Assembly: GCA_001799845.1 (NCBI GenBank)
Contig: MGUG01000040.1
Span: 5,499-69,498 of the forward strand
Length of the DNA: 64,000 bases
From: Elusimicrobia bacterium GWC2_64_44
GTDB lineage: Bacteria; Elusimicrobiota; Elusimicrobia; Elusimicrobiales; UBA9959
Reading direction: 5' to 3'
The position numbers were made by a program, and so were the translations under genes. This document shows positions 11,769-41,595 of the stretch, piece after piece. The notes beneath the pieces were generated by a model. That model did not search any database and was not told where the DNA came from. It saw only the letters and a program-made list of their open reading frames with translations. Position 1 is the stretch's first letter. Each line of letters begins with the position of its first letter.

Positions 11769-11794
11769 AAAGCGCTAAATATAATAGCAAATGG

Positions 11795-12187
11795 TTAACG
11801 GCCCTTTTCCTTTTCCAGCTCGGCCTTTACCTCCGGCGGGATCTCCACCAGCTTCAGGTCGGGGCCGACGCAGACCAGGTCCGTCTCGGCCTTGCCGATG
11901 AGCTTGCCGTCCTGGTTGTGCAGGCTGTAGGCGAAGACGATGCGGTACGGCGTGAACTCCTTCACCCAGGTCTTGATCTCCAGCTCGTCGCCGTAGAGCG
12001 CCGGGGCCTTGTACTCCATCTCCTGCCGCCGCACGGCGAAGCCGACCCCGCGCTCGAGCAGGCCCTTCACGGTGAGCCCGCGCGCCTCCAGGTATTCCGA
12101 GCGCGCCTCCTCCAGGTATTTCAGGTAATTGGCGTGGTAGACCGCGCCGCTGGTGTCCGTGTCGTAGTAGTAGATGCGCCTTTTCAT
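11795..12187 (-). CDS. YbgC/4HBT-family acyl-CoA thioesterase
   Basis: YYYDTDTSGAVYHANYLKYLEEAR hotdog-fold signature. Confidence 0.8.
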   Translation of the reverse strand: MKRRIYYYDTDTSGAVYHANYLKYLEEARSEYLEARGLTVKGLLERGVGFAVRRQEMEYKAPALYGDELEIKTWVKEFTPYRIVFAYSLHNQDGKLIGKAETDLVCVGPDLKLVEIPPEVKAELEKEKGR

Positions 12188-12604
12188 TTATTCTCCGATT
12201 ATCTTTACCAGCACGCGTTTGTCGCGCTGCCCGTCGAACTCGCCGTAGAAGATCCTCTCCCACGGCCCGAAATCCAGCCGGCCCTTCGTGACGGCCACCA
12301 CCGCCTCGCGGCCCATGATGGTGCGCTTGAGGTGCGCGTCGCCGTTGTCCTCGCCCGTGAGGTTGTGCCGGTAGCCGCGGGCGTCGTAGGGCGCCAGCTT
12401 CTCCACCCACTGCAGGAAGTCCTGGTGCAGGCCGCCCTCGTTGTCGTTGATGAAGACGCTGGCGGTGATGTGCATGGCGTTCACCAGGCACAGGCCTTCC
12501 TTGATCCCGCTCTTCGCCAGCTCGGCCTCCACCTTGGGGGTGATATGCACGATGGCGCAGCGCTCGGGAGTGTTGAACGTAAGATAGGCGGTATGGGCTT
12601 TCAT
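12188..12604 (-). CDS. YjbQ/UPF0047 family (secondary thiamine-phosphate synthase-like)
   Basis: Internal ATG start [10 protein letters not shown]...[18 protein letters not shown]...GDAHLKR. The track ORF is extended upstream to 12985. Confidence 0.8.
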
Positions 12605-12670
12605 GGGTCCCCCGTAAAAACGGCTGAAAACGTGTAAATATTCTACAAACTTTGCGAGTTGCCGGGGATT

Positions 12671-12679
12671 TGCTATAAT
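12671..12679 (+). promoter_or_regulatory. extended -10 TGCTATAAT, 6 nt before the rpmB ATG (leaderless geometry)
   Basis: TTGCGA-N16-TATAAT-aagtcc-ATG; no SD. Confidence 0.5.
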
Positions 12680-12685
12680 AAGTCC

Positions 12686-12880
12686 ATGGCTTACAAATGC
12701 GAACTTTGCGGCAAAAAGGCCGTTTCCGGTAACTCCTACAGCCATTCTCACAGAGCTACCAAACGGACCTTCAAGCCCAACCTTCAGAAACAGAAGATAG
12801 TGCACGCCGGCAAGACCCAGTCCGTCTACGTCTGCACCATCTGCATCAAGAGCGGCAAAGCGGTGCGCCCGGCCAAGTAG
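12686..12880 (+). CDS. rpmB: 50S ribosomal protein L28 (Cys-containing form)
   Basis: [34 protein letters not shown] matches the L28 core. CxxC...CxxC present. Confidence 0.9.
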
Positions 12881-12915
12881 GCCGAGCCTCCCCTTCGCTG
12901 CCCTGTTAAGGTTAA

Positions 12916-12950
12916 GGCCGTCCGCCTCAGGCGGGCGGCCGTTGTTATTT
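12916..12950 (+). terminator. rho-independent terminator after rpmB
   Basis: ggccgtccgcc-tca-ggcgggcggcc, then gttgttattt. Confidence 0.6.
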
Positions 12951-13013
12951 GCCTGCCGGCGGCCCCCGGACCGCCGAATCAACAAGAATTTAATATTTTG
13001 TAAACAACCCTTT

Positions 13014-13021
13014 TGTATAAT
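13014..13021 (+). promoter_or_regulatory. candidate extended -10 (TGTATAAT) in the AT-rich region upstream of the coiled-coil genes
   Basis: AT-rich 12980-13075 in otherwise GC-rich DNA. A second TATAAT lies at 13045-13050. Confidence 0.35.
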
Positions 13022-13103
13022 TTTCCTGTATACAATAAGGGATTTATAATTATTCCCTTACTCTTTTTATTTTTTCGCAGCTGCAGGTCCCGGAGGACTC
13101 AAG

Positions 13104-16100
13104 ATGGAGCAGGAACCTAAACTAGACCCGTCCGCCATAACGGACGTGGAAACCGCGAAGCTCGCGCTCCGCTGGGCCGTGGAGAAGATCCACGGCCTGC
13201 AGGAGGAGCTTGGCCGTCTCCGCGAGGACAACCGCAGCAAGACCCATATCAACCGCTCCCTCACCGAACAGGTGGAGCAGAAGACCGAAGTCCTGAAGAA
13301 GTGGCAGGGCACCATCAAGACGTGGGAAGAGAACTGGAAGACGCAGACCGCGATGGAGGCGGACCTGAAGGCCAAGCTGCGCGAGCAGATCCTCAACGAG
13401 GAGGCCTCCAACTGGCGCGCCTCCCGCGCCCAGCTGGAAAAAGAGATCCAGGCCCTGAAGACCGAACTGGCCGGCCGGGAGGCCGAGATAGGCCGCATGA
13501 AGCTGCGCCTGATGGACGAGCTGCGCGCCGCCTCCGAGATGAAGGAGGCCGAGCTCTCCACGCTGCTCGGCAAGCACCAGGACAACCTGGCCGCCAGGGA
13601 GACCGCCCTGCGCGAAAATTACGAGCACCTCGAGGCCGAGCTGATAGCCTCGCAGCGCCTGCGCGCCGAGCAGGAGGAGCTTTCCCTCCGCGGCCGCTAC
13701 GAGGCCCGCCAGGACGAGCTCGCCAAGCTTTACGGGCAGAAAGAGGCCCAGCTGGAGACCTTCCGCAAGCAGCTGGAAGACGAGCGCTTCAACAAGCTGG
13801 AGGCCCTGAAGGCCGAAGCCGAAAAAGAGCTGGACGCCCGCAGGCAGGCCCTGCAGGAAGAGCACGCCAGGCTGACCGCCTCCCTCTCCGCCGCCGCCGA
13901 AAGCCGCGTGGAAGAGGCCCGCGCCGCCGCCGCCTCGCGCGAGGCCGAGCGCCAGCAGTCCTTCGCCGCGCTGCAGGCCGCGCTGGAAAAAGATTTCGCC
14001 GAGCGCTTCGCCCGCGCCGAAGAGGAAAAGAAGGCGGAGCTCGCCGCCTACAAGTCCGTGTCGCAGCAGGAGCTGGAAGCCCTGCGCGCCCGCGCGGCCG
14101 GCAACGCCGAGAAGCGGGAGCAGGAATACGTCAAGCTGCGCCTCGACATGGAAGCGCAGCTGGTGGAGCTGGTCAAGCGGCGCGAGGAGGAGATCCGCGC
14201 CCGCTACGAGAAGGCCGCCGAGGAGTCCCGCGCCCAATGGGCCAGGGCCGAGGCCGACAGCGCCGCGCGCGCCCGCGAGGAAGCCTCGCAGGAAGTCGCC
14301 CGCCTGGAAACGGAATTCAAGAAGCGAGAGGAGAGCCTGCGGGCCCTGCGCGAGCAGGAAGCCGCCGCCTACCGCGAGAAGACGGACGCGGAGCTGCGCG
14401 CGCGCGAGGAAGCGCTGCGCGCCGGGCTGCTCGAGGAGCAGAACGCCTGGACGGTGCGCCAGCAGGCCGCCGCCGACGAGGGCAGGAAGGCCATAGAGAA
14501 AGCCCACTCCGAGCGCCTGGAGAGCCTGAAGGCCGGCCTCGAAGAGGCCTACCTGATGAAGGAGAAGGCGCTGGAGACCCGCGTGGGCTCGGTGCAGCGC
14601 CGCATTAAAGCCGAGTGGCTCGCCCGCGAGGACGAGTGGCGCCTGGAGAAAGAGGCCGCCCTGCACGAGGAAAAGCAGAAGCTGAAGGCCGAATTCGAGA
14701 CCCACCGCGAGCTGCTGCACAGGAAGCTGTCGCAGTTCGAGGACGAGCTGAAGCTCAAGTACGCCCAGCGCGAGACGGAGCTGGAGGCCGCCCGCAAGGC
14801 CTCCCTGGACGCCGCCGAGGCCGAACTGAAGCGCGAGACCGACGCCGAGAAGGAGCGCCTGCGCGCCCAGGCCGAAACCCGCCGCCGCGAGCTGGAGGAG
14901 CGCGAAGCCGCCCTCCGCGCCGAGGGAGAGCAGGCCGCCAAAAAACTGGAAGAGAGACTTTACAAGCGCGAGACGGAACTCAAGGACGCGCTGCGCCGCA
15001 AGACCGAGGAGCTGGAGTCGGCCTTCAACAGCCGCCTGGAGGCCGAGAAGACCCGCATCGCCTCGGAGTTCGCCGCCAAGGCCGGCGCCGCCGAACGCGA
15101 GCGCCTGAAGATCCTGGAGGAGAAGACCGCCCTCGAGGAAGCCCACGCCGCCAAGGTCCGCGAGCTGGAGGGCGCCATCGGCGCCGCCGCCCGCACCGAG
15201 CGCGCCAAGGCCGAGGAAGCTTTCCGCTCCCGCGAGCTGCACCTGCAGGGACGCGAGGCGGAGCTGGACAAATTCAAGGTCTCGCTGGAGCAGCAGCACT
15301 CCGAGCTGAAGGTCAAACTTTACCAGGACCTGCAGCAGAAAGAGCACGAGCTGTTCGGCAAGCTGGCCTCCGCCAAGGAGGAGATGTACCAGGCGCTCAA
15401 CGCCCACCGCGAGGTGCTCGACGGAGAGCACGCCGCGCGCATCACCGCGCTGCTGCAGAAGGAAGGGCAGCTGCAGGAGCGCTTCGAGGAAAAATTCCGG
15501 GCCGCCGACGCCGCCATGAAGCAGCGCCTCCAGGACGAGGCCGAGAAAGCCGCCGTGGAGCTCGAGGGCCGCAAGGCCGAGCTCGAGGCCCGCTACCGGG
15601 GCCGCGAGCAGGCGCTGGCCGCCTCCGCCGCCGAGCGGCAGACCCGCCTGGAAGCCGAGTCGGCCGTGCGGGAGAAGACCCTGCTGGCCGCGCTGGAAAA
15701 AGCTTTCGAGAAGAAGCGCCAGGAGCTGGATAATTCCATCGCCCGCCGCGAGAAGGAGCTGGACAAGAAATACTCCGAACTCGCCGAGCGCCAGCAGGCC
15801 CAGTTCCAGAGCGAGAAAGCCGTCTGGGAAGCCAAGAAGATAGACTCACTCAACTCCGAGCGCCAGCTGCTGCGGTCCGAGTTCGAAAAGAAAGAGGCCG
15901 TGCTCAACCAGAAGCTCGACGAGGAGCTGGCCCGCAACCGCGCCGACCGCGTCCGCCGCGAGGAAGAGCTGTCGGCCAAGAAAGACGAGCTGGAAAAGGC
16001 CTACTACGCCGAGCTGGAGCGCAACAGGACGGCCGCCGATGCCGCCCGCAGGGAGCAGGAAGCCGCCCTGGAGGAGCGCTCCCGGGAGATAGAGGGTGAG

Positions 16101-16268
16101 CAGAGCCGCCTTACCCAGTGGGCCCTGCACAAAGAGGAAGAGCTGGGCAGGAAATACAAAGAGCGCGAGCGCGAACTGCTCGCCCTCTGCGAGAAGCAGC
16201 GCGAGGAACTGGAACAGGCCAGCGCCGCCGAGGTAAAAGCCCTGAAGGACAGCTTCGGGAAAAAATAG
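13104..16268 (+). CDS. giant coiled-coil protein 1 (1054 aa, E/A/R/K/L/Q-rich)
   Basis: GGAGGA RBS. No Pro after residue 9, no TM, no NTPase motif. Recurrent [RK]E-x-[EA]L...[YFW] modules. Confidence 0.85.
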   Translation: MEQEPKLDPSAITDVETAKLALRWAVEKIHGLQEELGRLREDNRSKTHINRSLTEQVEQKTEVLKKWQGTIKTWEENWKTQTAMEADLKAKLREQILNEEASNWRASRAQLEKEIQALKTELAGREAEIGRMKLRLMDELRAASEMKEAELSTLLGKHQDNLAARETALRENYEHLEAELIASQRLRAEQEELSLRGRYEARQDELAKLYGQKEAQLETFRKQLEDERFNKLEALKAEAEKELDARRQALQEEHARLTASLSAAAESRVEEARAAAASREAERQQSFAALQAALEKDFAERFARAEEEKKAELAAYKSVSQQELEALRARAAGNAEKREQEYVKLRLDMEAQLVELVKRREEEIRARYEKAAEESRAQWARAEADSAARAREEASQEVARLETEFKKREESLRALREQEAAAYREKTDAELRAREEALRAGLLEEQNAWTVRQQAAADEGRKAIEKAHSERLESLKAGLEEAYLMKEKALETRVGSVQRRIKAEWLAREDEWRLEKEAALHEEKQKLKAEFETHRELLHRKLSQFEDELKLKYAQRETELEAARKASLDAAEAELKRETDAEKERLRAQAETRRRELEEREAALRAEGEQAAKKLEERLYKRETELKDALRRKTEELESAFNSRLEAEKTRIASEFAAKAGAAERERLKILEEKTALEEAHAAKVRELEGAIGAAARTERAKAEEAFRSRELHLQGREAELDKFKVSLEQQHSELKVKLYQDLQQKEHELFGKLASAKEEMYQALNAHREVLDGEHAARITALLQKEGQLQERFEEKFRAADAAMKQRLQDEAEKAAVELEGRKAELEARYRGREQALAASAAERQTRLEAESAVREKTLLAALEKAFEKKRQELDNSIARREKELDKKYSELAERQQAQFQSEKAVWEAKKIDSLNSERQLLRSEFEKKEAVLNQKLDEELARNRADRVRREEELSAKKDELEKAYYAELERNRTAADAARREQEAALEERSREIEGEQSRLTQWALHKEEELGRKYKERERELLALCEKQREELEQASAAEVKALKDSFGKK

Positions 16269-16274
16269 TTTTCT

Positions 16275-19184
16275 ATGGATACCGGGCATCTGCACGACTT
16301 CGAGGACATCCTGAAAGAGACCGAGCTGGACTCGGCCAAGATGGTCCTGCGCCTGACCTCCGAGCTCCGCGAGAAGGAGCTGGAGCTGGCGGCCTCGCGC
16401 TCGAAGAGCTTCGACGAGATCCAGCGCAGCAGCAAGGCCAAGGAGGCCGAGTTCGAGGCGCTGATGCGCGCGCAGGAAGACCGCATCGCCAGGCGCGAGC
16501 AGGAGCTGGCCCGCAGCCTGGTGGAGAAGGAATCCGCGCTGTGGCAGAAATACCAGGCCATGCTCGACGACGCCGTGGCGCTCCAGCGCTCTGAGTTCGA
16601 GAACGAACGGGCCCTGCTGAAGAGCGACATCGAAAAAAAAGAGGCCGAGCTGGCCGCGCAGAAAAAGAACCTGCGCCTGGAGATGGAGGGCCTCTTCAAG
16701 AAATGGGAGGCCGAGCGCGAAGCCGATTTCAAGACCGAGCGGGAAACCTTCATAGAGGAGCTGAAGCTGGGGCGCGAGACCGCCAAGAAAGAGGCGCTCG
16801 AGCGGGCCCGGCAGATGGAGGAACTCTGGCGCCAGAAGCTCTCCCAGCAGGAGGCCGACTACCACAGCCGCGAGGCGCTCTCCGCCGAGGAGATCCGCAG
16901 CCAGATGCGCCGCGAGCGCGTCGAGGAACTCAAGGCCGTCAACGACCGCCTGAACGCCGAGTATTCCAAGCGCGAGCAGGAGCTCTACGCCCACTACGCC
17001 TCCTGGCTCGAGGAGAACAAGCGGCTCATCGAAGACAAGTACGCCCGCCGCATGGAGGCCTCCGCCTCCGAGTACCGCGACCGGACCGCCCGCCTGGAAG
17101 ACGCGCTGGCCAAGACCCGGCAGGAGCTGGAGGCGCGCGAGCGCGCCTGGGAAGAGAAGTACGCCGAACTTAAGAAATTTTTCACGGACAAGGAAGCCGG
17201 CCTGGCCGTCGCCGAGAAGGACCTGCAGGCCCAATACCTCGGGCGCGAGCGCGAGCTGGGCGAGCGGCACGCGCTGCTGGAGCGCGAGCTGAAAGAAGAC
17301 GCCGCCCGGCGCCGCGACGCGCTGCTTAAGAAGGAGAAGGCGCTTGAGCAGCAGTTCGCCAACAACCTGGCCGAGTTCGCCGCGGAGACCGAGCGCCGCC
17401 TGCATACCATCGAGCAGCGCGAGGGAGAGCTGGCGCGCCAGCGCGAGGAGACCACCCGGCTCCGCTCCCAGATAGGCGAGCTGCTGGCCCAGAAGCAGCA
17501 GGAGCTGGAGCGCACCTTCGAGGAGCGCAGCTCGCTGCTGCGCCAGTCGCTCGAGGAATCCTACAAGATCAAAGAGCTCAGCCTCGCCAAGAAATACGAA
17601 GAGGTGGAGCAGCAGTACGCCCTGCTGAACGCCCAGAAGGACGCCGCGCTGGCCAAGGCGGAGTCGCTGGCCCAGGACGCGGCGCGCCTGCGCGAGGCGC
17701 TGGCCTCGCGCGACTCCGAGACCCGCGGCGCCATAGAGGCCGAACGCCTGCGCCTGGAGGCCGACCTGCGGCGCTCCGAGGAGCAGCTGCAGGCCCGCGC
17801 CGACAAGCTCAAGCAGGACGCCATCAACCGCGAGGAGGCGCTGCGCGCCGAATACGCCGACAGGGTGCAGGCCGAGGCGGGGCGCCTGGCCGCGCAGCTC
17901 AGGATCAAGGAAGAGGCGCTGGAAAAAGAGCGCACCGCCCTCAACGCCCGTGCCGCCGAGATGGAGGGCCGCTTCCTCGAGGCCCTGAAGGCCCGCGAAG
18001 ACGAGGTCACCGAGAATTTCCGCCGCCACACCGAGGCCCTCAAGGCCCAGGCCGAAGCGGCCAGGCGCGCGTGGGAGGAGGAGAAGGCCGCCCTGACCGC
18101 CGCCGCCGCCGAGAACTCCGAAAAGACCCGCGCCGAGGAGTACGGCACCGCCGCCCGGCGCGAAGAAGAGCTGAAGAACTTTTACGAGGCCCGCGAGAAA
18201 GAGCTGCGCGCCGCCGCCGCGGCTTCGGCCGCCGCCGCGGAGCGGATGCTGGCCGAAACCTACGCCGTCAAGGAGCAGGACCTCCAGGGGCGCGTCAAGG
18301 CCCTCTCTGAAAGCCTGGACCGCGCCAACGCCGAGCACGCCTCCTCCGCGGCCGGGCTCTCGGCCGTGAGGGACGAAATGAAGCTGATGGGCACCCGCCT
18401 GGAAGAGAGCGAGCGCGAGCGCCAGAAGCTGATCCAGGAGAACCTGACCAAGGCGCGCGACCTGCGGCAGACCCTGGAGAAAGAATTCCTGGAGAAGATC
18501 AAGGATATCGAGCAGAACTACCTGGCCCAGCTCACCGACCTCTCCAAGCGCTCCGACGAGGCGCGCCGCGCGGACCAGGACGAGTATTTCCGCAAGCTGC
18601 AGTACGTCAAGGACGACTTCGGCGCGCGGCTGGCCGCGCAGTCCAAGGAGATCGAGGCCTCCTACCTCGGGCGGGAACGGTCCATGTCGGCCGCGCTCGA
18701 CAGCGCCTATAAGCTCAAGGAGAAAGCGCTGGAGGCCCGACAGGCCCAGCTGGAGAACAGCTACCAGGCGATGCTCTCGGAGAAGTCCGCGACCATCGAC
18801 ACCGACCGCGAGCTGGCCTCCAGCGTGGGCCGGCTGCGCGACGAGCTGGAGCAGAAGAACCGCCAGCTCAAGGAGACCATCGCCTCCTACAACTCCCGGC
18901 TGGAAGAGCTGGAGGGCAAGCTGCGCTCCGACCACGAAGCCCGCAAGAAGGACCTGGAGGACGGCCACCGCATGCGCGCCGCCCAGCTGGAGGCCGAGCG
19001 GAGCAAGCTCAAGGGCCTGCTCGAGCAGGAGCAGCGCCTTGTCACCGACCTGCAGAAGCGCGAAGCGGCGCTGCAGGAGGGCTACGCCGCGCGCGAGGCG
19101 GAGCTGGCCCGCCGCTTCAAAGAGGCGCGCGAGCGCCTGGAAAAAGATTACCAGGACAAGCTCAAAGACCAGAAGGGCAAATAG
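16275..19184 (+). CDS. giant coiled-coil protein 2 (969 aa), same composition
   Basis: Starts 6 nt after the upstream stop. No Pro seen in the translation. Same [RK]E-x-[EA]L...[YFW] module. Confidence 0.85.
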   Translation: MDTGHLHDFEDILKETELDSAKMVLRLTSELREKELELAASRSKSFDEIQRSSKAKEAEFEALMRAQEDRIARREQELARSLVEKESALWQKYQAMLDDAVALQRSEFENERALLKSDIEKKEAELAAQKKNLRLEMEGLFKKWEAEREADFKTERETFIEELKLGRETAKKEALERARQMEELWRQKLSQQEADYHSREALSAEEIRSQMRRERVEELKAVNDRLNAEYSKREQELYAHYASWLEENKRLIEDKYARRMEASASEYRDRTARLEDALAKTRQELEARERAWEEKYAELKKFFTDKEAGLAVAEKDLQAQYLGRERELGERHALLERELKEDAARRRDALLKKEKALEQQFANNLAEFAAETERRLHTIEQREGELARQREETTRLRSQIGELLAQKQQELERTFEERSSLLRQSLEESYKIKELSLAKKYEEVEQQYALLNAQKDAALAKAESLAQDAARLREALASRDSETRGAIEAERLRLEADLRRSEEQLQARADKLKQDAINREEALRAEYADRVQAEAGRLAAQLRIKEEALEKERTALNARAAEMEGRFLEALKAREDEVTENFRRHTEALKAQAEAARRAWEEEKAALTAAAAENSEKTRAEEYGTAARREEELKNFYEAREKELRAAAAASAAAAERMLAETYAVKEQDLQGRVKALSESLDRANAEHASSAAGLSAVRDEMKLMGTRLEESERERQKLIQENLTKARDLRQTLEKEFLEKIKDIEQNYLAQLTDLSKRSDEARRADQDEYFRKLQYVKDDFGARLAAQSKEIEASYLGRERSMSAALDSAYKLKEKALEARQAQLENSYQAMLSEKSATIDTDRELASSVGRLRDELEQKNRQLKETIASYNSRLEELEGKLRSDHEARKKDLEDGHRMRAAQLEAERSKLKGLLEQEQRLVTDLQKREAALQEGYAAREAELARRFKEARERLEKDYQDKLKDQKGK

Positions 19185-19213
19185 CCCCACCTCCCCGCGC
19201 GCGGGGCCCGGAG

Positions 19214-19258
19214 AAAAATCACGGCGGCAGGCAGTAAGTTTCCCGTCGTGATTTTTTT
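19214..19258 (+). terminator. candidate terminator after the coiled-coil operon
   Basis: aaaaatcacg...cgtgattttt stem with a long loop, then a T-run. Confidence 0.5.
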
Positions 19259-19334
19259 ATTTCCCGAAATATTTGTATATAATTTTACTGCGCAGATTTG
19301 CGCGGTGTTTTATTACTATAAGGCGGTGCGACCA

Positions 19335-20795
19335 ATGATGAAAAAATTCGACAAAAAGATACTCTTCGTAGGCTACGGTTCGGTGGCGCAGTGCGCCCTG
19401 CCGATGCTCTTCAAGCTGATCAAGGTGCCCGCGAAGAACATCACCGTTATGGATTTCGAGGACAAGCGCGAAGCGCTCAAGCCCATGCTGGCCAAGGGCG
19501 TGAAGTACGTGCGCGAGCAGGTGACGCAGAAGAACATGGGCGCGCTCCTGGGCAAATACCTGAAGGCCGGCGACATGCTGATAGACCTGGCCTGGAACAT
19601 AGACGCCTGCGAGATCCTGCAGTGGTGCCACGACCGCGGTGTGCTCTACATCAACACCTCCACCGAGCTGTGGGACCCCTACGCCGGCGCCGAGGACAAG
19701 CACCCCACCGAACGCACCCTGTACGTGCGCCACATGGCGATGCGCAAGATGATAGCCAAGTGGAAGACCCCCGGCCCGACCGCCGTCATCGAGCACGGCG
19801 CCAACCCCGGCCTGATCTCCCACTTCGCCAAGAAGGGCCTGCTCGACATCGCCGAGAACCTGCTCGCCGACCGTAAGGTGAAGGGCGCCAAGGCGGAAAA
19901 ACTGCGCCAGCTGGTCAAGGACCAGACTTTCAACGAGCTGTCCCAGGCCGTGGGCGTGAAGGTCATCCACGTCAGCGAGCGCGACACCCAGATCACCAAC
20001 AAGCCGAAGCTCGTCAACGAGTTCGTCAACACCTGGAGCGTGGAAGGCTTCCGCGAGGAGGGCGTGGCGCCGGCCGAGCTGGGCTGGGGCACGCACGAAA
20101 AGACCCTCCCCCCGTTCGCCTGCGAGCACAAGAGCGGCCCGAAGAACCAGATCTGCATCGCCCGCATGGGCATGAACACCTGGATCAGCACCTGGGTGCC
20201 CGACTACTGCATCCACGGCATGCTGGTGCGCCACGGCGAGGCCTTCACCCTCAGCGACAAGCTGACCGTGTGGAAGAACGGCAAAGCCGCCTACCGGCCC
20301 ACCGTGCACTACGCCTACTGCCCGTCGGACTCCGCCATCGCCTCCCTCAACGAGCTGCGCGGCTACGACTTCAAGCTGCAGCCCAAGCTCCGCATCCTCG
20401 GCGACGAGATCATCAGCGGCTACGACACCCTCGGCACCCTGCTGATGGGCCACGACTACAACGCCTGGTGGACCGGCACCATCCTGGACATCCACGAGAG
20501 CCGCAAGCTCATCCCGCACCAGAACGCCACCACTATCCAGGTGGCCATAGGCGTGCTGTCGGCCGCCATGTGGATGATGGACAACCAGGGCGAGGGCGTC
20601 TGCGTGCCCGACGACCTGCCGCACGAGTATGTCCTCAAGATCGCCAAGCCCTGGCTGGGCAAGCTGCACTCGGCGAAGTCCGACTGGACGCCGCTGAAGC
20701 ATTACACCAACGCCTTCAAGGGCTTCAACAACCCCCAGGTGGACAGGAAGGACCCGTGGCAGTTCAAGAACTTCCTGATCACGGACGGCGATTAA
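19335..20795 (+). CDS. hss: homospermidine synthase
   Basis: Start at MMKKFDKKILFVGYGSVAQ (Rossmann). ERDTQ, FVNTWSVEGF, PAELGWGTHE, DWTPL and DPWQFKNF match bacterial Hss as recalled. Confidence 0.85.
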   Translation: MMKKFDKKILFVGYGSVAQCALPMLFKLIKVPAKNITVMDFEDKREALKPMLAKGVKYVREQVTQKNMGALLGKYLKAGDMLIDLAWNIDACEILQWCHDRGVLYINTSTELWDPYAGAEDKHPTERTLYVRHMAMRKMIAKWKTPGPTAVIEHGANPGLISHFAKKGLLDIAENLLADRKVKGAKAEKLRQLVKDQTFNELSQAVGVKVIHVSERDTQITNKPKLVNEFVNTWSVEGFREEGVAPAELGWGTHEKTLPPFACEHKSGPKNQICIARMGMNTWISTWVPDYCIHGMLVRHGEAFTLSDKLTVWKNGKAAYRPTVHYAYCPSDSAIASLNELRGYDFKLQPKLRILGDEIISGYDTLGTLLMGHDYNAWWTGTILDIHESRKLIPHQNATTIQVAIGVLSAAMWMMDNQGEGVCVPDDLPHEYVLKIAKPWLGKLHSAKSDWTPLKHYTNAFKGFNNPQVDRKDPWQFKNFLITDGD

Positions 20796-20843
20796 CGATT
20801 CGGCAAACTAAAAAATCGGTACGGAGGAAGACCAGACAAAAGT

Positions 20844-21992
20844 ATGATCACAAAGAAACAGATGCAGGACCTAGCCAAGAAGCACGGTACGCCGCTCTTC
20901 ATCGTGGACCACGATGAGATCCGCAAGAACTACGCGAAGTTCAGGAAGTACCTGCCGCGCGTCCAGGCCTATTACGCGGTCAAGTGCGAGCCGATGCCGG
21001 AAATAGTCCGGACGCTCTACAAGGCCGGCGCCAGCTTCGACGTGGCTTCCATGCCCGAGTTCAAGATAGTTCACGAGAACATCAAGGGCATGCCGGACAA
21101 GAAGCGCCAGGACTGGATCTGGGACAAGATCATCTACGCCAACCCGATAAAGCCGCACGAGACGCTGGTGGAGCTGGACAAGTACCGCCCGCTGGTCACG
21201 TTCGACAACCTCGAAGAGATCAAAAAGATAAAGAAGTACGCCCCGCACGCCGGCCTGTGCCTGCGCATCCGCGTGTCCAACACCGGCGCCCAGGTGGAGC
21301 TCTCCTCCAAGTTCGGCGCCTCGCCCGGCGAGGCCGTGGACCTCATCCTCGAGGCCGTCAGGCAGGGCCTCGGCGTGGAGGGCCTGAGCTTCCACGTGGG
21401 CAGCCAGACCACCAACTTCGAGAACTTCGTACAGGCCATCAACACGGCCGCCGACATCTTCGCCGAGGCCAAGAGCCGCGGCTACGACAAGATGAACGTG
21501 CTCGATATCGGCGGCGGCTTCCCGGCCCCGTACGACGCCTCCGTGAAGCCCTTCGAGGAGCTGGCCCGCAAGATCAACGCGGAGCTGGACCGCCTGTTCC
21601 CGGACCCTTCGATCGAGATCCTGGCCGAGCCGGGCCGCTTCATGATCGCCACCGCCGGCACCTCGGTGGTGCGCATCAACGGCAAGGCCGTGCGCGACGG
21701 CAAGACCTGCTACTACGTCAACGACGGCGCCTACCACAGCTACTCGGGCATCATCTTCGACCACCAGCACTGCCACATGCACGCCTTCCGCAAGGGCAAG
21801 AAGACGGAGATCTGCGGCGTGTTCGGCCCCACCTGCGACGCGCTGGACGTGATCTCGATGTCCGAGAACCTGCCCACGGACCTGCAGCTGGGCGAGCTGA
21901 TGTACAGCGTCAACATGGGCGCGTACAGCCACGCGTCCTCCACCTGGTTCAACGGCTTCCCGCCCGCGAAAGTGGTGCACGTGAACAAGTAA
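20844..21992 (+). CDS. PLP-dependent ornithine (or Lys/Orn) decarboxylase, alanine-racemase fold
   Basis: YAVKCEP Lys motif; GAYSHASSTWFNGF C-terminal motif typical of eukaryote-type ODC. Confidence 0.85.
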   Translation: MITKKQMQDLAKKHGTPLFIVDHDEIRKNYAKFRKYLPRVQAYYAVKCEPMPEIVRTLYKAGASFDVASMPEFKIVHENIKGMPDKKRQDWIWDKIIYANPIKPHETLVELDKYRPLVTFDNLEEIKKIKKYAPHAGLCLRIRVSNTGAQVELSSKFGASPGEAVDLILEAVRQGLGVEGLSFHVGSQTTNFENFVQAINTAADIFAEAKSRGYDKMNVLDIGGGFPAPYDASVKPFEELARKINAELDRLFPDPSIEILAEPGRFMIATAGTSVVRINGKAVRDGKTCYYVNDGAYHSYSGIIFDHQHCHMHAFRKGKKTEICGVFGPTCDALDVISMSENLPTDLQLGELMYSVNMGAYSHASSTWFNGFPPAKVVHVNK

Positions 21993-22016
21993 CCCGGGCC
22001 GCAGGGCCCCAAAAAA

Positions 22017-22049
22017 TACCGCGGCCCGCAAGGTCCGCGGTATTTTTTT
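22017..22049 (+). terminator. rho-independent terminator
   Basis: taccgcgg-N10-ccgcggta followed by T7. Confidence 0.75.
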
Positions 22050-22065
22050 ATCGCTCCTTAAGTCC

Positions 22066-22194
22066 AGGCTGGCGGGGGGATACCTTCTCCGGGTACGCTC
22101 GGGCACACCGTGCCCTCGCTCTGTCAGCTCGGCCCTCGCGCTACGCAAGCTCGGGCCTCGTGAGGCCCCTGCGAAGGCACCCCCCCGCCAGCCT
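22066..22194. other. structured intergenic element closed by a 14-bp perfect inverted repeat
   Basis: AGGCTGGCGGGGGG (22066-22079) pairs with CCCCCCGCCAGCCT (22181-22194). Internal hairpins gggcac-acc-gtgccc and gggcct-cgtg-aggccc. Confidence 0.4.
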
Positions 22195-22221
22195 CGAGGC
22201 TTAGCTAAGCGCCAGATTTAA

Positions 22222-22227
22222 TATAAT
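22222..22227 (+). promoter_or_regulatory. -10 TATAAT, 6 nt before the pdaD ATG (leaderless geometry)
   Basis: TATAAT-ttaact-ATG; no SD. Confidence 0.45.
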
Positions 22228-22233
22228 TTAACT

Positions 22234-22785
22234 ATGTCCTTTAACCTCGTACCCAAAGAAGTTTTTTTGACCAAGGGCCTCGGCCGCCACAAAGAAAAAC
22301 TGGCGAGCTTCGAGGAGGCCCTGCGGGACGCCAAGATAGCCAAGTATAATCTTGTGCACGTCTCCAGCATCTTCCCCCCCTACTGCAAGGTCATCCCCGC
22401 CAAGAAGGGCATAGAGAAGCTGCATGACGGCCAGATAGTGCACTGCGTCCTGAGCCGCAACGCCATCAACGAGAACCACCGGCTGATAGCCTCCTCGGTG
22501 GGGCTGGCCGTGCCCAAGGACAAGTCCCATTACGGCTACATCTCCGAGCACCACACTTTCGGCGAGACCGACGAGAAGACCGGCGACTACGCCGAAGACC
22601 TGGCGGCCATGATGTTATCAACCATCCAGGGCGTGGAGTTCGGCAGCGACACCACCTGGGACCAGAAGGAAGAGCTCTGGAAGCTCAGCGGCAAGATCGT
22701 GCGCGCCGCCAACGTCACCCAGTCCGCGATAGGCACCGAGGGCGTCTGGACCACCACCGTGGCCGCCGCCGTCTTCCTGTTCTAA
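22234..22785 (+). CDS. pdaD: pyruvoyl-dependent arginine decarboxylase
   Basis: VPKEVFLTKGLGRHKEKLASFEEALRDAKIAKYNLVHVSSI, including the self-cleaving Ser-Ser site. Confidence 0.85.
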   Translation: MSFNLVPKEVFLTKGLGRHKEKLASFEEALRDAKIAKYNLVHVSSIFPPYCKVIPAKKGIEKLHDGQIVHCVLSRNAINENHRLIASSVGLAVPKDKSHYGYISEHHTFGETDEKTGDYAEDLAAMMLSTIQGVEFGSDTTWDQKEELWKLSGKIVRAANVTQSAIGTEGVWTTTVAAAVFLF

Positions 22786-22844
22786 CCCGGGCCGCTACGC
22801 GACGGGGCCCCGCGGGGCCCGCTTACCGCCAGGAAGAGGCGCAT

Positions 22845-23705
22845 ATGAAATTCAAACCGGCTAAAAAGCAATTCATGTTCGGCGAACTGTCCGGCCCCGA
22901 AGGGGCGGCCTTCGTCATCCTGCCCGTGCCGTACGAGAGGACCGTCTCCTACGGCAAGGGCACAGGCCGCGGCCCGGGCGCGATCATAGACGCCTCCTGG
23001 CAGCTCGAGCTCTGGGACGAGGAGCTCAAGACCGAGACCTGCCGCCGCGGCATCTTTACCGCGGCGCCGGTGAACTGCGCGCTGCCGGAAGGAAAATTCT
23101 TCCCGCACCTGGAGAAGACCGTGGAGGGGCTGCTCTCCTCAACCAAGGCCCTGCCTTTCTTCATAGGCGGCGAGCACAGCGTGACGCAGGCCCTGCTGCC
23201 GCCCTTCATCCGCCGTCACAAGGACCTTTCCATCCTGCACTTCGACGCGCACGCCGACCTGCGCGTGTCCTACCACGGCAACCGCCGCAGCCACGCCTGC
23301 GCCGTGTACCCCGCCTCCCGCACCAACCGCGTGGTGCAGGTGGGCATCCGCAGCGTGGGCCACGACGAGAAACAGTTCCATAACGCCGGCAACGTGATCA
23401 CCCACCTGATGCACGAGAACCTGGACCTCAAAAAACTGGAGCGCCAGGTCTTGCGGGAGCTGACGGACACCGTCTACCTTACCATCGACGTGGACGGCTT
23501 TGACCCGTCGGTCATGCCGGGCACGGGCACGCCGCAGCCCGGAGGCTTCGGCTGGTACGAGGCCCTGCGCCTCTTCAAGGCCGTCTGCGCGGCCAAGAAA
23601 GTGGTGGGAGTGGACGTGGTAGAGACCGCCCCGGTCAAGGGCTCCAACGTCTCCGAGCTGACCGCGGCCAAGCTGGTCTACCGCCTGATGGGCTACCTGG
23701 CCTGA
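22845..23705 (+). CDS. speB: agmatinase (arginase fold)
   Basis: GGEHS, HFDAHADLR, DVDGFDPSVMPGTGTP metal-ligand motifs. Confidence 0.85.
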   Translation: MKFKPAKKQFMFGELSGPEGAAFVILPVPYERTVSYGKGTGRGPGAIIDASWQLELWDEELKTETCRRGIFTAAPVNCALPEGKFFPHLEKTVEGLLSSTKALPFFIGGEHSVTQALLPPFIRRHKDLSILHFDAHADLRVSYHGNRRSHACAVYPASRTNRVVQVGIRSVGHDEKQFHNAGNVITHLMHENLDLKKLERQVLRELTDTVYLTIDVDGFDPSVMPGTGTPQPGGFGWYEALRLFKAVCAAKKVVGVDVVETAPVKGSNVSELTAAKLVYRLMGYLA

Positions 23706-37394: not shown

Positions 37395-38483
<1,089 letters not shown>

Positions 38484-38534
38484 TGTGTTTTTCCTCCGTG
38501 ATCTAAATTCTTCCCTTATAGTCTAGCAGGCCAT

Positions 38535-38554
38535 CCCGACAAGGGCGTGTCGGG
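38535..38554. promoter_or_regulatory. inverted repeat CCCGACA-N6-TGTCGGG overlapping the putative recA -35
   Basis: On the minus strand, TTGTCG-N16-TATAAG lies upstream of the recA RBS. Candidate operator. Confidence 0.3.
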
Positions 38555-38602
38555 AACTTTTCGGCCAGAAAATATTTTTTAAGGCCGCCCGGTGCTTTTG
38601 TT

Positions 38603-38612
38603 ATGTTAACAT
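38603..38612. promoter_or_regulatory. perfect 10-bp palindrome ATGTTAACAT in the recA-lexA intergenic region
   Basis: Seen directly; function unknown. Confidence 0.25.
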
Positions 38613-38723
38613 TTATTTCCCAATTTGCCGAGCTCCTGCCTGTTTAGTATAGATGATTAACGCCCATCTGTCAAGTATTAAGGAGGTATTGACTTTACCG
38701 GTTTAATATATTATCCTTAATAT

Positions 38724-39380
38724 ATGCACCCCATACAAGAGAAGCTGCTTAACCTCTCCAAAGAAACCAACCTGGCCCAGGTCAGCCTGCGCGAAATGGC
38801 CGCCGCCATCGGCCTGCCGGGCGAGTCCCCCCAGAAGATAAAGCACCACCTGCAGCAGCTCGAGAAGAAAGGCTTCTTCACCATAGACCGCTCCCATGGC
38901 CTGATGGAAAAAGCCTCGCTGCTGCCCGGGCTAGCGAGCGGCCTGCTCAAAGAGGCCTCCTCGTTATTCTCCATACCTATAATAGGCACGGCCAACTGCG
39001 GCCCCGCCACGCTTTACGCCGAGCAGAACTTCGAGGGCTTCCTGCGCGTCTCCGGGCGGCTGCTCGGCCGCGCCAGCCCGGCGGGCCTCTACGGCATAAA
39101 GACCAACGGCTCCTCCATGAACCGCGCCGAGATAGCCGGCAAGAAGATAGAGGACGGCGACTATGTGGTGATAGACAGCAATAAGCGCGTGCCCGCCAAC
39201 AACGACATAGTGCTGGCCATCATAGACAACAAGGCCACCATCAAGCGCTTCATTGACGACCGCGCCAACGGCCAGGTCATCCTGAAGGCCGACTCCTCCT
39301 ACGACTACGACCCCATCTACCTGCACCCCGACGACGACTTCCTCATCAACGGCAAAGCCATCGCCGTCATCAAGAAGTAG
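38724..39380 (+). CDS. lexA: LexA-like S24 repressor
   Basis: Winged-helix N-terminus (SPQKIKHHLQQLEKKGFF), GSSMN Ser and ATIKRF Lys dyad. Divergent from recA. Confidence 0.75.
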   Translation: MHPIQEKLLNLSKETNLAQVSLREMAAAIGLPGESPQKIKHHLQQLEKKGFFTIDRSHGLMEKASLLPGLASGLLKEASSLFSIPIIGTANCGPATLYAEQNFEGFLRVSGRLLGRASPAGLYGIKTNGSSMNRAEIAGKKIEDGDYVVIDSNKRVPANNDIVLAIIDNKATIKRFIDDRANGQVILKADSSYDYDPIYLHPDDDFLINGKAIAVIKK

Positions 39381-39448
39381 GGACGTTGTTGAGTTGTTGA
39401 CTTTTTAACCGGCATAGCCAACAACTCAACAACTCAACAACGTCCCCT
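39379..39448. repeat. 20-bp perfect inverted repeat built from CAACAAC units
   Basis: GGGACGTTGTTGAGTTGTTG ... CAACAACTCAACAACGTCCC. The right arm is preceded by an extra caacaact unit. Confidence 0.8.
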
Positions 39449-39455
39449 AGTTATT

Positions 39456-39758
39456 ATGAAGAACAATAAAACACATTACGGCAGCGGCTGGAGCAAGCTG
39501 GAATTTTTGACCAAAGTCCGCGACCTCCACAGGTCCAATCCCTCGGGCGTGACTTTCCGGATCACTACCCAGGGGCACAGTTCCCGGCCAAACCGGATCA
39601 GCCATTATGTGAGGGAAGCCGGCCTGGTGTCAATGAACAGCAAAGGCATCAGGCTGGGAAGCGCCGGGAATGATTCCGGCTTCGAGACCATCAACTACGC
39701 TGAAACGATGGGGATCTCCTACACCTTGCCGAACAATACGCATCACAGGCTATATTAG
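39456..39758 (+). CDS. hypothetical protein (100 aa) in the low-G+C insert
   Basis: ORF followed by a strong terminator; composition atypical for the window. Confidence 0.45.
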   Translation: MKNNKTHYGSGWSKLEFLTKVRDLHRSNPSGVTFRITTQGHSSRPNRISHYVREAGLVSMNSKGIRLGSAGNDSGFETINYAETMGISYTLPNNTHHRLY

Positions 39759-39771
39759 TTCCCCGTTAAAC

Positions 39772-39804
39772 AAAACCCCCCGGCCTTCCGGGGGTTTTTG
39801 TTTT
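39772..39804. terminator. bidirectional rho-independent terminator
   Basis: aaaacccccgg-cctt-ccgggggtttt. A second AT-rich palindrome, atacaacaa-aa-ttgttgtat, lies at 39817-39836. Confidence 0.75.
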
Positions 39805-39907
39805 AAACCGGCACCTATACAACAAAATTGTTGTATTTTCATAGCAACCCCGCCAGGCTCGCCGAGCGGCAGTCCCAAGCAAACAGTAAATCCATTTCTT
39901 TAATATC

Positions 39908-41332
39908 CTATTTTGATGAAATCTCGGTTACATACAGAAGCTTGTCATTTATCTCTTTGGCTTCCAGCGCAACCCCACTTAAGACAAGCTCTTTTTTCTC
40001 AAGCGCCATGCATTTTTGAGCATTTGGGCCTACCAAAGTATAGGGACCGCAACACGCGGCGCTGCCGCCCGGGCATCGCCCGACAATGCACGGGGGGTGC
40101 ACCGTCGCTAAAGCTTTTGAGTAATCGTCGACGCGCTTGAGGAATTCTTTAAGTTGGGATATTGAATCCTCGGCCTTTTTCGCGTATTCGCTGGCTGGAT
40201 AGTTTTGCACAACAGCTGAATACCTGGAAATAATCCCGGCGATAAAATCATCCGGGGAAGACGGAAGTCGCGCATAAATCCATGCCACCGCATTCTCTTC
40301 TTCGGGGACGTTCATCAAGTCGGGCACGAGTTTCCTGAGGAAGTCCGCTGATTCACACAAGATTTCTGGAGCGTGCTGACTATTAGGATACTTATCGACA
40401 TACTTCTGGTAAGTGTCTGACAGGTCCACCGCCCTGTCGGTATCACCGCCTTCAAAATAAATCCCAGGCAAATGCCAAATAAGAAGATAATCCGCCTCCG
40501 CTGCGTAGCTGCTCTTCGGATAGTCGAGGACTACTTTCCTAAAAATTTTATATGCAGGCTCACGCCAGATCGACACCTCCCCCTCTATCGCAAAGTCTGA
40601 CAAGAAATCATAGTACAGCTTACCCAACGCAAACAGGTTTTCTGCCTTAGCGTCGTCCCCGGAATTGCCAAGCTTTTCCTCTTGCGCGGTGATGCGCGCA
40701 ACCCAATCTATGTACCGCCTCGCATCCTTGCCATACTTACTACCCGGGAAAGAGGAGATGAGAACTTGGAATTCATCACTCGCACTCTGAAACGGATTGT
40801 TCCCTGTATGGGTATGGTAGTAGTAAGCTAAAGCATATTGCGCGTCAGGAAGCATCTTATGGTGCGGATTCTCAGAGATAAATTCCCGCAATTTCTCTAT
40901 AGGACATCCCGGCCAATTCCCTATTCTATGCAGGAACACACTGCGGAGAGCATAATCGGCAAAACCCCTCCCATATCGCGAGGCCGGGAAGGAACTGACA
41001 ACGCCCTCAAATTGAGACACAGCATTGCGATAGTCACATTCACGATAATAGGCTACGCCAGTTTCGTACATTGCCTGCGGCACATAGTCCGTGCCTGGAT
41101 ACATCGCGATAATTTTGCCGCAAATCTCCCGCGTGTCGGGCGGAGATAATTGTTGAATGCGCATCAGGGCCGCTTCCGGCTTGCTGGTATCGATCTGTTC
41201 TTTAGTTATCTCCCGACGCGGCGGCTGCATGAAGCGAGTCACGGGTTTACCAGAAGGCTGCCGAAAAAGAAAAAACCATACAATAATCGGCAGGATCGCC
41301 ACGCCGATTAAAAGATATATTTTATCTTTCAT
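39908..41332 (-). CDS. membrane-anchored TPR/BamD-YbgF-like repeat protein (474 aa), low G+C
   Basis: N-terminal TM IYLLIGVAILPIIVWFFLF. Six or more repeats of the [FY]P.S.Y...A.Y pattern. Cys-rich C-terminus. Confidence 0.65.
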   Translation of the reverse strand: MKDKIYLLIGVAILPIIVWFFLFRQPSGKPVTRFMQPPRREITKEQIDTSKPEAALMRIQQLSPPDTREICGKIIAMYPGTDYVPQAMYETGVAYYRECDYRNAVSQFEGVVSSFPASRYGRGFADYALRSVFLHRIGNWPGCPIEKLREFISENPHHKMLPDAQYALAYYYHTHTGNNPFQSASDEFQVLISSFPGSKYGKDARRYIDWVARITAQEEKLGNSGDDAKAENLFALGKLYYDFLSDFAIEGEVSIWREPAYKIFRKVVLDYPKSSYAAEADYLLIWHLPGIYFEGGDTDRAVDLSDTYQKYVDKYPNSQHAPEILCESADFLRKLVPDLMNVPEEENAVAWIYARLPSSPDDFIAGIISRYSAVVQNYPASEYAKKAEDSISQLKEFLKRVDDYSKALATVHPPCIVGRCPGGSAACCGPYTLVGPNAQKCMALEKKELVLSGVALEAKEINDKLLYVTEISSK

Positions 41333-41477
41333 TGATTACTTACCCGCCCCTGCATATCGTATCAAATATTCGAAGAATTCCAAGCGAAACCTGACCGGGC
41401 AGGCAGGGGTATAACTTAATGACCATTTATCCGCGTTCCACGCTGGTTTGAGCAAAGATACTCATTTGGAATTAGCG

Positions 41478-41519
41478 CCCCCCCCAAAAAAAACCAAAAC
41501 GACCGAATCACCCCCCCCC
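41478..41519. repeat. homopolymer tracts C8-A8 and C9 in a divergent promoter region
   Basis: C run 41478-41485, A run 41486-41493, C run 41511-41519. Confidence 0.9.
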
Positions 41520-41564
41520 GGCCGGAATATTTTACTTGCCTCCGCGGGCCGGAATAGGTTTAAT

Positions 41565-41583
41565 TTGACAGTAGTCAATTGAC
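41565..41583. promoter_or_regulatory. TTGAC-agta-GTCAA-TTGAC palindromic cluster just upstream of the S1 protease RBS
   Basis: GTCAATTGAC is a perfect 10-bp palindrome. A 10-bp direct repeat GGCCGGAATA occurs at 41520 and 41547. Confidence 0.3.
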
Positions 41584-41595
41584 CGGAGGCAACTC

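Follow-up and report, generated by a model that had tools for sequence, protein, structure and literature searches.

Long coiled coils that depart from the heptad repeat are rare, poorly predicted and little studied, and the best bacterial case is Scy, which organises polar growth. Scy is composed of a 63-amino-acid (aa) heptad domain and a 1226-aa coiled coil with 51 residues per 14 turns (PMC3718342), and proteins of the Scy/FilP type have an Ala-rich hydrophobic core that permits dimeric hendecads (PMC9858780). In Anabaena, ZicK and ZacK are encoded by neighbouring coiled-coil genes and their products are interdependent for polymerisation (10.1101/553073), and intermediate filament (IF) proteins are laid out with a non-helical head and tail around a rod (PMC6599971). 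Here, we analysed a 64,000-nucleotide (nt) stretch of DNA from Elusimicrobia bacterium GWC2_64_44 (contig MGUG01000040.1, positions 5,499 to 69,498 of the forward strand), hereafter the window, with a focus on two adjacent genes that encode coiled-coil proteins of 1054 and 969 aa, P1 and P2. Our analysis suggests that one two-gene operon makes both as paralogous, cytoplasmic structural proteins, each of which would fold into a very long, nearly unbroken alpha-helix with a narrow seam of 11 residues per 3 turns. Such helices would associate laterally and nearly without supercoiling into straight rods of ~145-155 nm, and in our judgement there is about an even chance that these long hendecad rods co-assemble into a cytoplasmic scaffold or filament.

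Sequence features and hendecad periodicity of P1 and P2

The P1 gene (13104..16268, plus strand) encodes a 122-kDa protein with an isoelectric point of 5.6 whose only Pro residues are at positions 5 and 9, and the P2 gene (16275..19184, plus strand) encodes a 113-kDa protein with an isoelectric point of 5.5 that has neither Pro nor Cys. Their homologues have 0-5 Pro per protein in all members. An earlier note, written from the sequence alone, had described two co-oriented open reading frames (ORFs) of these lengths separated by 6 nt, P1 being free of Pro after residue 9, and both being built mostly of E, A, R, K, L and Q; its coordinates were exact, and these six residues account for 74.6% of P1 and 70.8% of P2. 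The loose [RK]E-x-[EA]L module that it had pointed out is statistically real: P1 contains 15 and P2 18 copies of the pattern [RK][ED]x[EA]L, where shuffled sequences would give ~2, and copies with an aromatic residue no more than 8 positions away number 4 and 8, respectively (0.7 and 0.5 expected). The note had also seen no transmembrane (TM) segment, signal peptide or Walker motif. In line with this, Kyte-Doolittle analysis in 19-residue windows found no hydrophobic stretch in P1 or P2 of the length that a TM segment or signal peptide requires (top means of 0.37 and 0.72), and a motif scan found no Walker A motif in either protein. No Pfam or NCBIfam family scored above threshold for P1 or P2; ZapB gave a sub-threshold Pfam-type match to P1 residues 25-72.

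Fourier analysis of hydrophobic positions in the two proteins of the window gave periods of 3.66-3.68 residues for P1 and 3.63 for P2, with powers of 24 and 27, where shuffles reached at most ~11, and the family-averaged spectra peaked at 3.675 (power 52) and 3.625 (power 39). The local period of every family member lies at 3.66-3.68 for P1 (54 proteins) or 3.64-3.66 for P2 (55 proteins), so that the choice between a heptad and a hendecad register, which the earlier note had set out as a check, falls to the hendecad. The only exceptions are P1 residues 1-60 (3.48) and the last ~130 residues of P2, where a local period that ranges over 3.54-3.73 along the chain drifts to 3.54-3.59. Autocorrelation peaks at lags of 11, 26, 37, 55 and 66 in P1 and of 11, 18, 7 and 51 in P2, and in the hendecad register positions a and e, which are 4 apart, are strongly hydrophobic, with d and h weaker. 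The P1 hendecad rod (residues ~66-1050; 13299..16253, plus strand) has a seam period of 3.675, and from residue 66 to the end (~990 residues) its seam stays within ~270 degrees of the exact 11/3 lattice, drifting by less than 1 turn across ~270 helical turns.

Two further observations bear on what is being conserved. First, an orthologue from an AT-rich lineage, in which Ala and Arg have given way to Lys, Ile and Asn (5% Ala), keeps the same periods, and therefore it is the structure, and not the composition, that appears to be selected. Second, between nearest relatives 18 of the 20 indels in P1 (p = 8e-6) and 11 of the 12 in P2 (p = 4e-4) are in helical phase, with lengths of 4, 7, 11, 15, 18, 22, 26, 29, 33 and 40 residues, and a hot spot at P1 residues 237-267 has in-phase lengths exclusively (11, 18, 25, 29 and 40). 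Such indels argue that the helix is continuous through the indel sites, as the inter-helix loops of bundles would not give them. Since the undistorted helix completes one turn every 3.63 residues (PMC9858780), a seam period of 3.64-3.68 would leave almost no supercoil, and thus straight rods. By arithmetic, a single continuous helix would measure 156-158 nm for P1 and 143-145 nm for P2, close to the 150 nm that the earlier note had estimated.

Comparison with described coiled-coil systems

Like Scy (1326 aa), P1 and P2 are very long and nearly domain-free rods, and their non-heptad period of ~3.64-3.67 is near the 3.643 of Scy; for P2, this likeness extends to the autocorrelation lag of 51 and to a period of 3.625-3.65. 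P1 also shares the layout of Scy, with a short N-terminal heptad segment followed by a long non-heptad rod (PMC3718342). The analogy to Scy/FilP drawn in the earlier note is therefore structurally apt, in that P1 and P2 are hendecad proteins, but it does not extend to descent. The RGYDxxEVD motif of Scy/FilP proteins (PMC9858780) is absent, [RK]G[YF]D was not found in P1 or P2, and neither protein had a DivIVA Pfam match even at E <= 1; unlike in DivIVA-headed proteins, the heptad start of P1 bears another conserved motif, DVETAKLALRW. The core of P1 and P2 is bulky and aromatic, with 10-11% Ala at the seam centre, and not Ala-rich as in Scy/FilP. No homology to Scy or FilP was detected in searches of 5.8 billion proteins and 1.84 billion cluster representatives, in which the Scy and FilP sequences were not compared directly. 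In addition, the host belongs to the Elusimicrobia and not to the Actinobacteria, and there are two paralogous partners of nearly equal size. Judged by motif, core composition and homology, P1 and P2 do not appear to belong to the Scy/FilP family, and Scy would be their closest analogue only for a possible mode of working.

For heteropolymer formation, the closest analogue would be the ZicK/ZacK pair, likened here by description; neither protein was among the search matches. By this analogy, a heteropolymer in which P1 and P2 co-assemble would be the natural model. As with ZicK and ZacK, P1 and P2 are encoded by adjacent, conserved, coiled-coil-rich genes in all loci with enough DNA. Unlike zicK and zacK, which are not co-transcribed and whose products have several separate coiled-coil segments (10.1101/553073), P1 and P2 appear to form one operon and to be near-continuous rods.

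The resemblance to crescentin and IF proteins is limited to coiled-coil rods of the cofactor-free type whose ends are better conserved than their middle. P1 and P2 have no non-helical head or tail, as their predicted helices run from residue 11-15 to the end, their period is 3.64-3.68, their rod is three times as long as that of IF proteins, and no homology was found. The crescentin-type layout suggested in the earlier note is thus not borne out, given the lack of head and tail domains, the non-heptad period and the absence of a solved-structure match, crescentin itself not having been compared directly.

Martinez-Goikoetxea and Lupas are said to have surveyed hendecad coiled-coil families in 2023 (J Struct Biol). 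P1 and P2 have no sequence repeats, and a survey based on tandem repeats may have missed them. Like the tetrabrachion stalk and the surveyed hendecad families, they are mainly hendecad and are difficult targets for AlphaFold2 (AF2) (PMC11676326). A literature search for coiled-coil proteins of Elusimicrobia returned nothing relevant.

Selection, distribution and paralogy of the gene pair

Relative to the nearest relative, an Elusimicrobiales metagenome-assembled genome (MAG; locus L004) with 93-94% amino acid identity to P1 and P2, substitutions by codon position in the plus frame number 44/33/182 in P1 and 41/24/179 in P2, with ratios of nonsynonymous to synonymous substitution rates (dN/dS) of 0.12 and 0.10, respectively. 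This excess at third positions, together with the low dN/dS, indicates that P1 and P2 are genuine genes under purifying selection and not chance ORFs of DNA rich in guanine and cytosine (GC). Two very long antisense ORFs on the minus strand, of 769 aa (13122-15431) and 1114 aa (15846-19190), overlap the two genes and are by-products of codon composition; the substitution pattern by codon position shows that selection acts on the plus frame.

Homologues were searched in 5.8 billion proteins, profiles were run as hidden Markov models (HMM) against 1.84 billion cluster representatives, and one genome per GTDB species was scanned; most of the homologue matches are metagenomic proteins without a source name. 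The protein search returned 49 homologues of P2 and at least 14 of P1, all source-named ones being from Elusimicrobia, and the exhaustive HMM search with the P1 profile found 53 proteins. The species-genome scan yielded 57 loci with 34-94% identity, the titles of which refer to Elusimicrobia (Elusimicrobiota, Elusimicrobiales, Elusimicrobiaceae) except for five that merely read 'bacterium'. In none of these searches was a relative named from another phylum, and P1 and P2 would thus represent a new family that is confined, as far as found, to Elusimicrobia. In every locus of the 57-genome set with sufficient upstream DNA, the P1 homologue lies directly 5' of the P2 homologue. The phylogenetic survey proposed in the earlier note hence returns a P1-P2 tandem across 57 Elusimicrobia species genomes, a pair that appears to be conserved across one order of uncultured bacteria (Elusimicrobiales). 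The same note had named a recent, lineage-specific expansion of low-complexity sequence as one case that would overturn its reading; 57 genomes, 34-94% identity and purifying selection speak against it.

Alignment of the two profiles with hhalign showed that P1 residues 113-1049 are collinear with P2 residues 22-968 (score 187-194, E ~1e-21 to 1e-22), the match beginning at P1 residue 113-115, while reversed-alignment controls of the same composition and periodicity scored 72-79. From these alignments, P1 and P2 are collinear paralogues, P1 being a P2-like rod with an extra N-terminal region of ~112 residues. We also considered an N-terminal motif that P1 (DVETAKLALRW) and P2 (LDSAKMVLRL) may have in common, although the profile alignment instead pairs the P2 N-terminus with P1 from residue 113 onward.

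Distant relatives (P0070, P0075 and P0112) share solely the N-terminal 60-180 residues of P1, and on the contigs that were examined (P0070 and P0112) they are single genes with no P2 downstream. The ancestral state was presumably a single P1-like gene, P2 having arisen by tandem duplication in one clade. Other distant single-gene relatives without a P2 partner are found in locus L061 (1370-4885, 1171 aa) and in loci L062/L063 (10001-12445, 814 aa); what they have in common with P1 is limited to its N-terminal motif (DVETARLALRW...) and a periodicity of ~3.6-3.67, and the opposite-strand neighbours in L062 and L063 are type IV pilin-like (N_methyl) genes. A further P1-like protein of 826 aa (P0074) ends in ~170 unrelated residues that contain Pro and Gly and look FtsQ/POTRA-like by eye. 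It probably arose by chimeric assembly or through a frameshift; were the fusion with a division protein real, it would be informative.

Predicted structure, interface and conserved ends

AF2 monomer models of P1 and P2 are all-helical and without a globular domain, the longest helix comprising 424 residues. The helices of P1 span residues 15-241, 291-415, 426-849 and 860-1050, and P2 has five long helices; overall, they extend from residue 11-15 to 5 residues or fewer from the C-terminus. Confidence is moderate by predicted local distance difference test (pLDDT 66-70) and low by predicted template modelling score (pTM 0.22-0.23), with a minimum at residues 254-282 of P1. Searches of Pfam, NCBIfam and PDB sequences, and of the PDB with Foldseek, returned no meaningful family or fold.

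The hydrophobic seam is narrow (~120 degrees) and has aromatic residues at its centre, which is composed of 46-50% L/I/V/M, 18-22% aromatic residues and 10-11% Ala, Ala lying chiefly on the outer face. A narrow, aromatic-centred seam is more in keeping with a helix-helix core than with a face that binds lipid. In both proteins, basic residues are enriched along one flank of the seam and acidic residues along the opposite one (Fisher p = 0.003-0.004), an arrangement that would favour parallel pairing. We considered the Ala-rich outer face as a second interface and set it aside; it is probably compositional, as the AT-rich orthologue with 5% Ala keeps the periodicity.

The most conserved part of either protein is the P1-specific N-terminal region (residues 1-112; 13104..13439, plus strand), which has no P2 counterpart. 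It consists of a heptad stretch (period ~3.48, about residues 10-60) and then a near-invariant, Trp-rich block with W24, W67, W74 and W78 (...KKWQGTIKTWEENWKTQTAME...). In general, conservation is maximal at the rod ends, where surface positions are invariant too, and minimal in mid-rod. P2 keeps a length of 965-971 aa in 41 of the 55 species, even at identities as low as 39%, and P1 ranges from 959 to 1123 aa across species.

Possible assembly and alternative explanations

A scaffold or filament is the role best supported by these results, and a tether or ruler of fixed length is its main rival. In the former, rods of P1 and P2 would co-assemble into a higher-order structure specific to Elusimicrobiales, with their helices paired in parallel, as judged from the opposite charges of the two seam flanks, and with assembly proceeding through the conserved rod ends, namely the N-terminal, Trp-rich part of P1 and the two termini of P2. 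Function would then resemble that of Streptomyces Scy or of the cyanobacterial ZicK/ZacK pair. The heteromeric filament or scaffold proposed in the earlier note is thus retained in part: paralogy and operon linkage favour co-assembly, but a strict full-length, in-register P1:P2 heterodimer is unlikely because the lengths of the two proteins are uncorrelated (r = 0.04), that of P2 being fixed and that of P1 variable. Homo-oligomeric rods that co-assemble through their conserved ends, or a partial overlap of P1 and P2, would fit better.

The lack of a length correlation speaks against that one heterodimer geometry only; several further points weigh against a scaffold or filament of long rods. 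The AF2 monomers show three (P1) or four (P2) helix breaks, with the low pTM mentioned above, and these could be real hinges. However, they are probably fold-back artefacts and not domain boundaries, because only one of the four breaks in P2 (201-214) matches a shift in the hydrophobic phase track and because AF2 has a known tendency to put spurious bends into long coiled coils (PMC11676326). The hydrophobic content of the core, 21-23%, is low for a coiled coil, and opposite charges at i/i+3 and i/i+4 are enriched (280 vs 194 and 250 vs 172 pairs); therefore, parts of the proteins could be single stable helices. A single alpha-helix (ER/K) domain as such is at odds with the strong, phase-coherent hydrophobic seam, though charge pairs are enriched. 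In addition, bulky or aromatic hendecad cores have been reported to disfavour dimers (PMC9858780), and the oligomeric state of P1 and P2 may be higher than, or different from, a dimer. Finally, none of the neighbouring genes, which include rpmB and polyamine synthesis genes, hints at cell shape or division, and the P1 profile weakly matches exchangeable apolipoproteins.

Should P1 and P2 assemble, Elusimicrobia, a phylum with almost no cell biology, would have its first candidate for a cytoskeletal or scaffold element, and Scy-like architecture a second, independent origin. As an unrelated, order-wide pair with close to 1000 residues in unbroken 11/3 register, indels in quanta of helical phase and one partner of fixed length, they also offer a clean natural test case for the building of straight rods and the upkeep of their register. 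Concrete constructs for testing are the conserved P2 ends and the P1 N-terminal region with its Trp-rich block.

The main alternative is that the rods serve as a tether or ruler of fixed length that links two cell structures via the conserved ends and forms no filament, a reading that we regard as possible but rather unlikely. The near-constant length of P2 despite divergence to 39% identity, the indels in quanta of helical phase and the invariance of the rod ends even at surface positions all agree with it, as does a rod length of ~150 nm, which is about the presumed width of very small cells, several of the source MAGs being from 0.1-0.2 µm filter fractions according to their titles. Against this, the variation of P1 between 959 and 1123 aa leaves one partner alone constrained in length, no recognisable binding domain was found in Pfam, NCBIfam and structure searches, and a fixed rod length is also typical of filament formers with a defined axial stagger. 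A related possibility, which we consider a long shot, is that a straight, hetero-oligomeric and non-supercoiled rod of selected length (P2 being fixed at ~145 nm) acts as an internal strut or ruler that determines how wide the very small cells of Elusimicrobiales are or how their poles are shaped. If true, this would be a cytoskeletal principle built on a bulky-aromatic hendecad coiled coil, independent of both Scy/FilP and IF-like proteins.

Less likely than a scaffold are two readings that place P1 and P2 on lipid or on the cell surface. Like the apolipoproteins ApoA-I, A-IV and E, both proteins combine an 11-residue amphipathic periodicity with a composition rich in E, A, R, K, L and Q, and an 11/3 periodicity is the signature of the apolipoprotein, alpha-synuclein and perilipin class. 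P1 and P2 could thus be amphipathic helices of this type, whose straight 11/3 face would coat or shape a membrane or lipid body; moreover, apolipoproteins A-IV, A-I and E were the sole PDB sequence matches to P1, although weak (E = 5e-5 to 7e-3, 17-24 bits). Apolipoproteins are secreted, eukaryotic proteins made of Pro-punctuated 22-mers with a broader hydrophobic face. In P1 and P2, there is no Pro punctuation, the face covers ~120 degrees with 21-23% core residues (29% in apoA-I), and the class-A charge pattern is lacking, since base and acid lie on opposite flanks instead of base on both. The apoA-I match was nearly equal when the sequence was reversed (21.1 vs 18.1 bits); homology of P1 to apolipoproteins was accordingly rejected, composition and periodicity being sufficient to explain the match. 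Taken together, we consider lipid binding highly improbable.

Surface fibrils are typically rod-like, Pro-free and nearly Cys-free. An extracellular fibre, in the manner of a tetrabrachion-like hendecad stalk or an M-protein-like fibril, would be in keeping with the hendecad stalks known from surface proteins such as tetrabrachion (PMC11676326). It would have to rely on non-classical export. Neither a signal peptide nor a TM anchor or hydrophobic stretch was found, Pfam and NCBIfam searches revealed no cell-wall or S-layer anchoring domain, and the conserved neighbourhood contains no secretion genes. P1 and P2 are, besides, acidic and highly charged throughout, and we give this reading very little credence.

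Finally, although long coiled coils typify SMC-type proteins and GC-rich DNA yields spurious long ORFs, such as the antisense ORFs of 769 and 1114 aa, the suggestions that P1 and P2 are SMC/Rad50/MukB-like proteins with missed ATPase heads, or non-functional low-complexity ORFs, are refuted as far as sequence analysis reaches and have virtually no chance of being correct: there is no Walker A motif, Pfam or NCBIfam match or globular AF2 region, which agrees with the earlier note in placing them outside the SMC type, the helices extend from residue 11-15 to 5 residues or fewer from the C-terminus, and the dN/dS of 0.10-0.12 with third-position excess in the plus frame, the conservation of the pair in 57 species genomes and a periodicity that survives a complete change of composition in the AT-rich lineage all point to functional genes.

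Operon signals and gene neighbourhood

A promoter-like block of ~35 nt, AATTTAATATTTTGTAAACAACCCTTTTGTATAAT, with TATAAT at its end, is located at 12987-13021 (plus strand), ~85 nt 5' of the P1 start codon, and is present as a single copy in the window, specific to this operon. Of 63 related loci, 38 contain its 21-nt core, TAAACANNCCTTTTGTATAAT, exactly once, and wherever its position was compared with P1 coordinates the core lies ~70-360 nt, typically ~100 nt, 5' of the P1 homologue. The block is the sole strongly conserved segment of an otherwise divergent intergenic alignment and is a putative promoter. The spacing of any -35 hexamer is unusual, and the block could be the site of a regulator or represent a promoter type particular to the lineage.

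A strong Shine-Dalgarno site read from the sequence, CCGGAGGA (13090..13097, plus strand), precedes the P1 ATG by 6 nt, and its CCGGAGG core is kept in nearly all of 15 aligned loci. Downstream of P2, a strong intrinsic terminator (19212..19259, plus strand) consists of a long stem, AAAAAUCACGGCGG...CCCGUCGUGAUUUUU, followed by 7 U; the RNA fold of 19185-19262 reaches -34.1 kcal/mol (z = -4.0), a stability that was not matched by any of 200 shuffles. With a promoter-like element, a Shine-Dalgarno site and a terminator of its own, the pair is predicted to be a self-contained two-gene operon. In most genomes, the gap between P1 and P2 is 1-37 nt.

A small hairpin (AAGGGA...TCCCTT) is found at 13036-13061 (plus strand), 3' of the TATAAT box. 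Its pairing is apparently kept with altered letters in related loci (for example, AGGAATC...GATTCCT in L010 and L014), and its stability does not exceed that of shuffles (z = -0.7); the hairpin could be a stem of the 5' untranslated region or an operator. A second TTTGTATATAAT box lies at 19272-19283 (plus strand), just 3' of the terminator and 5' of a polyamine gene cluster.

The P1-P2 pair is flanked by genes for M16 peptidases, a B12-radical SAM enzyme, YjbQ and rpmB, and downstream by polyamine synthesis genes. The rpmB gene (12687-12880, plus strand), 5' of P1, encodes ribosomal protein L28 (64 aa), with a separate sigma-70-like promoter at 12652-12679 and a separate terminator at 12916-12940. 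The polyamine cluster (19248-23705) contains genes for saccharopine-dehydrogenase-like and Orn/DAP/Arg decarboxylase-like proteins, pyruvoyl arginine decarboxylase and agmatinase, and among the genes after P2 pyruvoyl arginine decarboxylase is found in 44 and agmatinase in 43 of the 57 loci. The order rpmB, coiled-coil pair, polyamine genes recurs across many related genomes. A minus-strand ORF of 265 aa that overlaps rpmB (12188-12985) is an over-extended YjbQ/UPF0047 gene, and between YjbQ and the B12-radical SAM gene a minus-strand ORF of 238 aa (11775-12491) had no Pfam match and was detected in 7 of the 57 related loci. No Rfam family and no tRNA was detected when the window was scanned for them. 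At 38001-42000, the GC content falls to 0.52-0.56 from ~0.64 elsewhere, and this segment may have been acquired horizontally.

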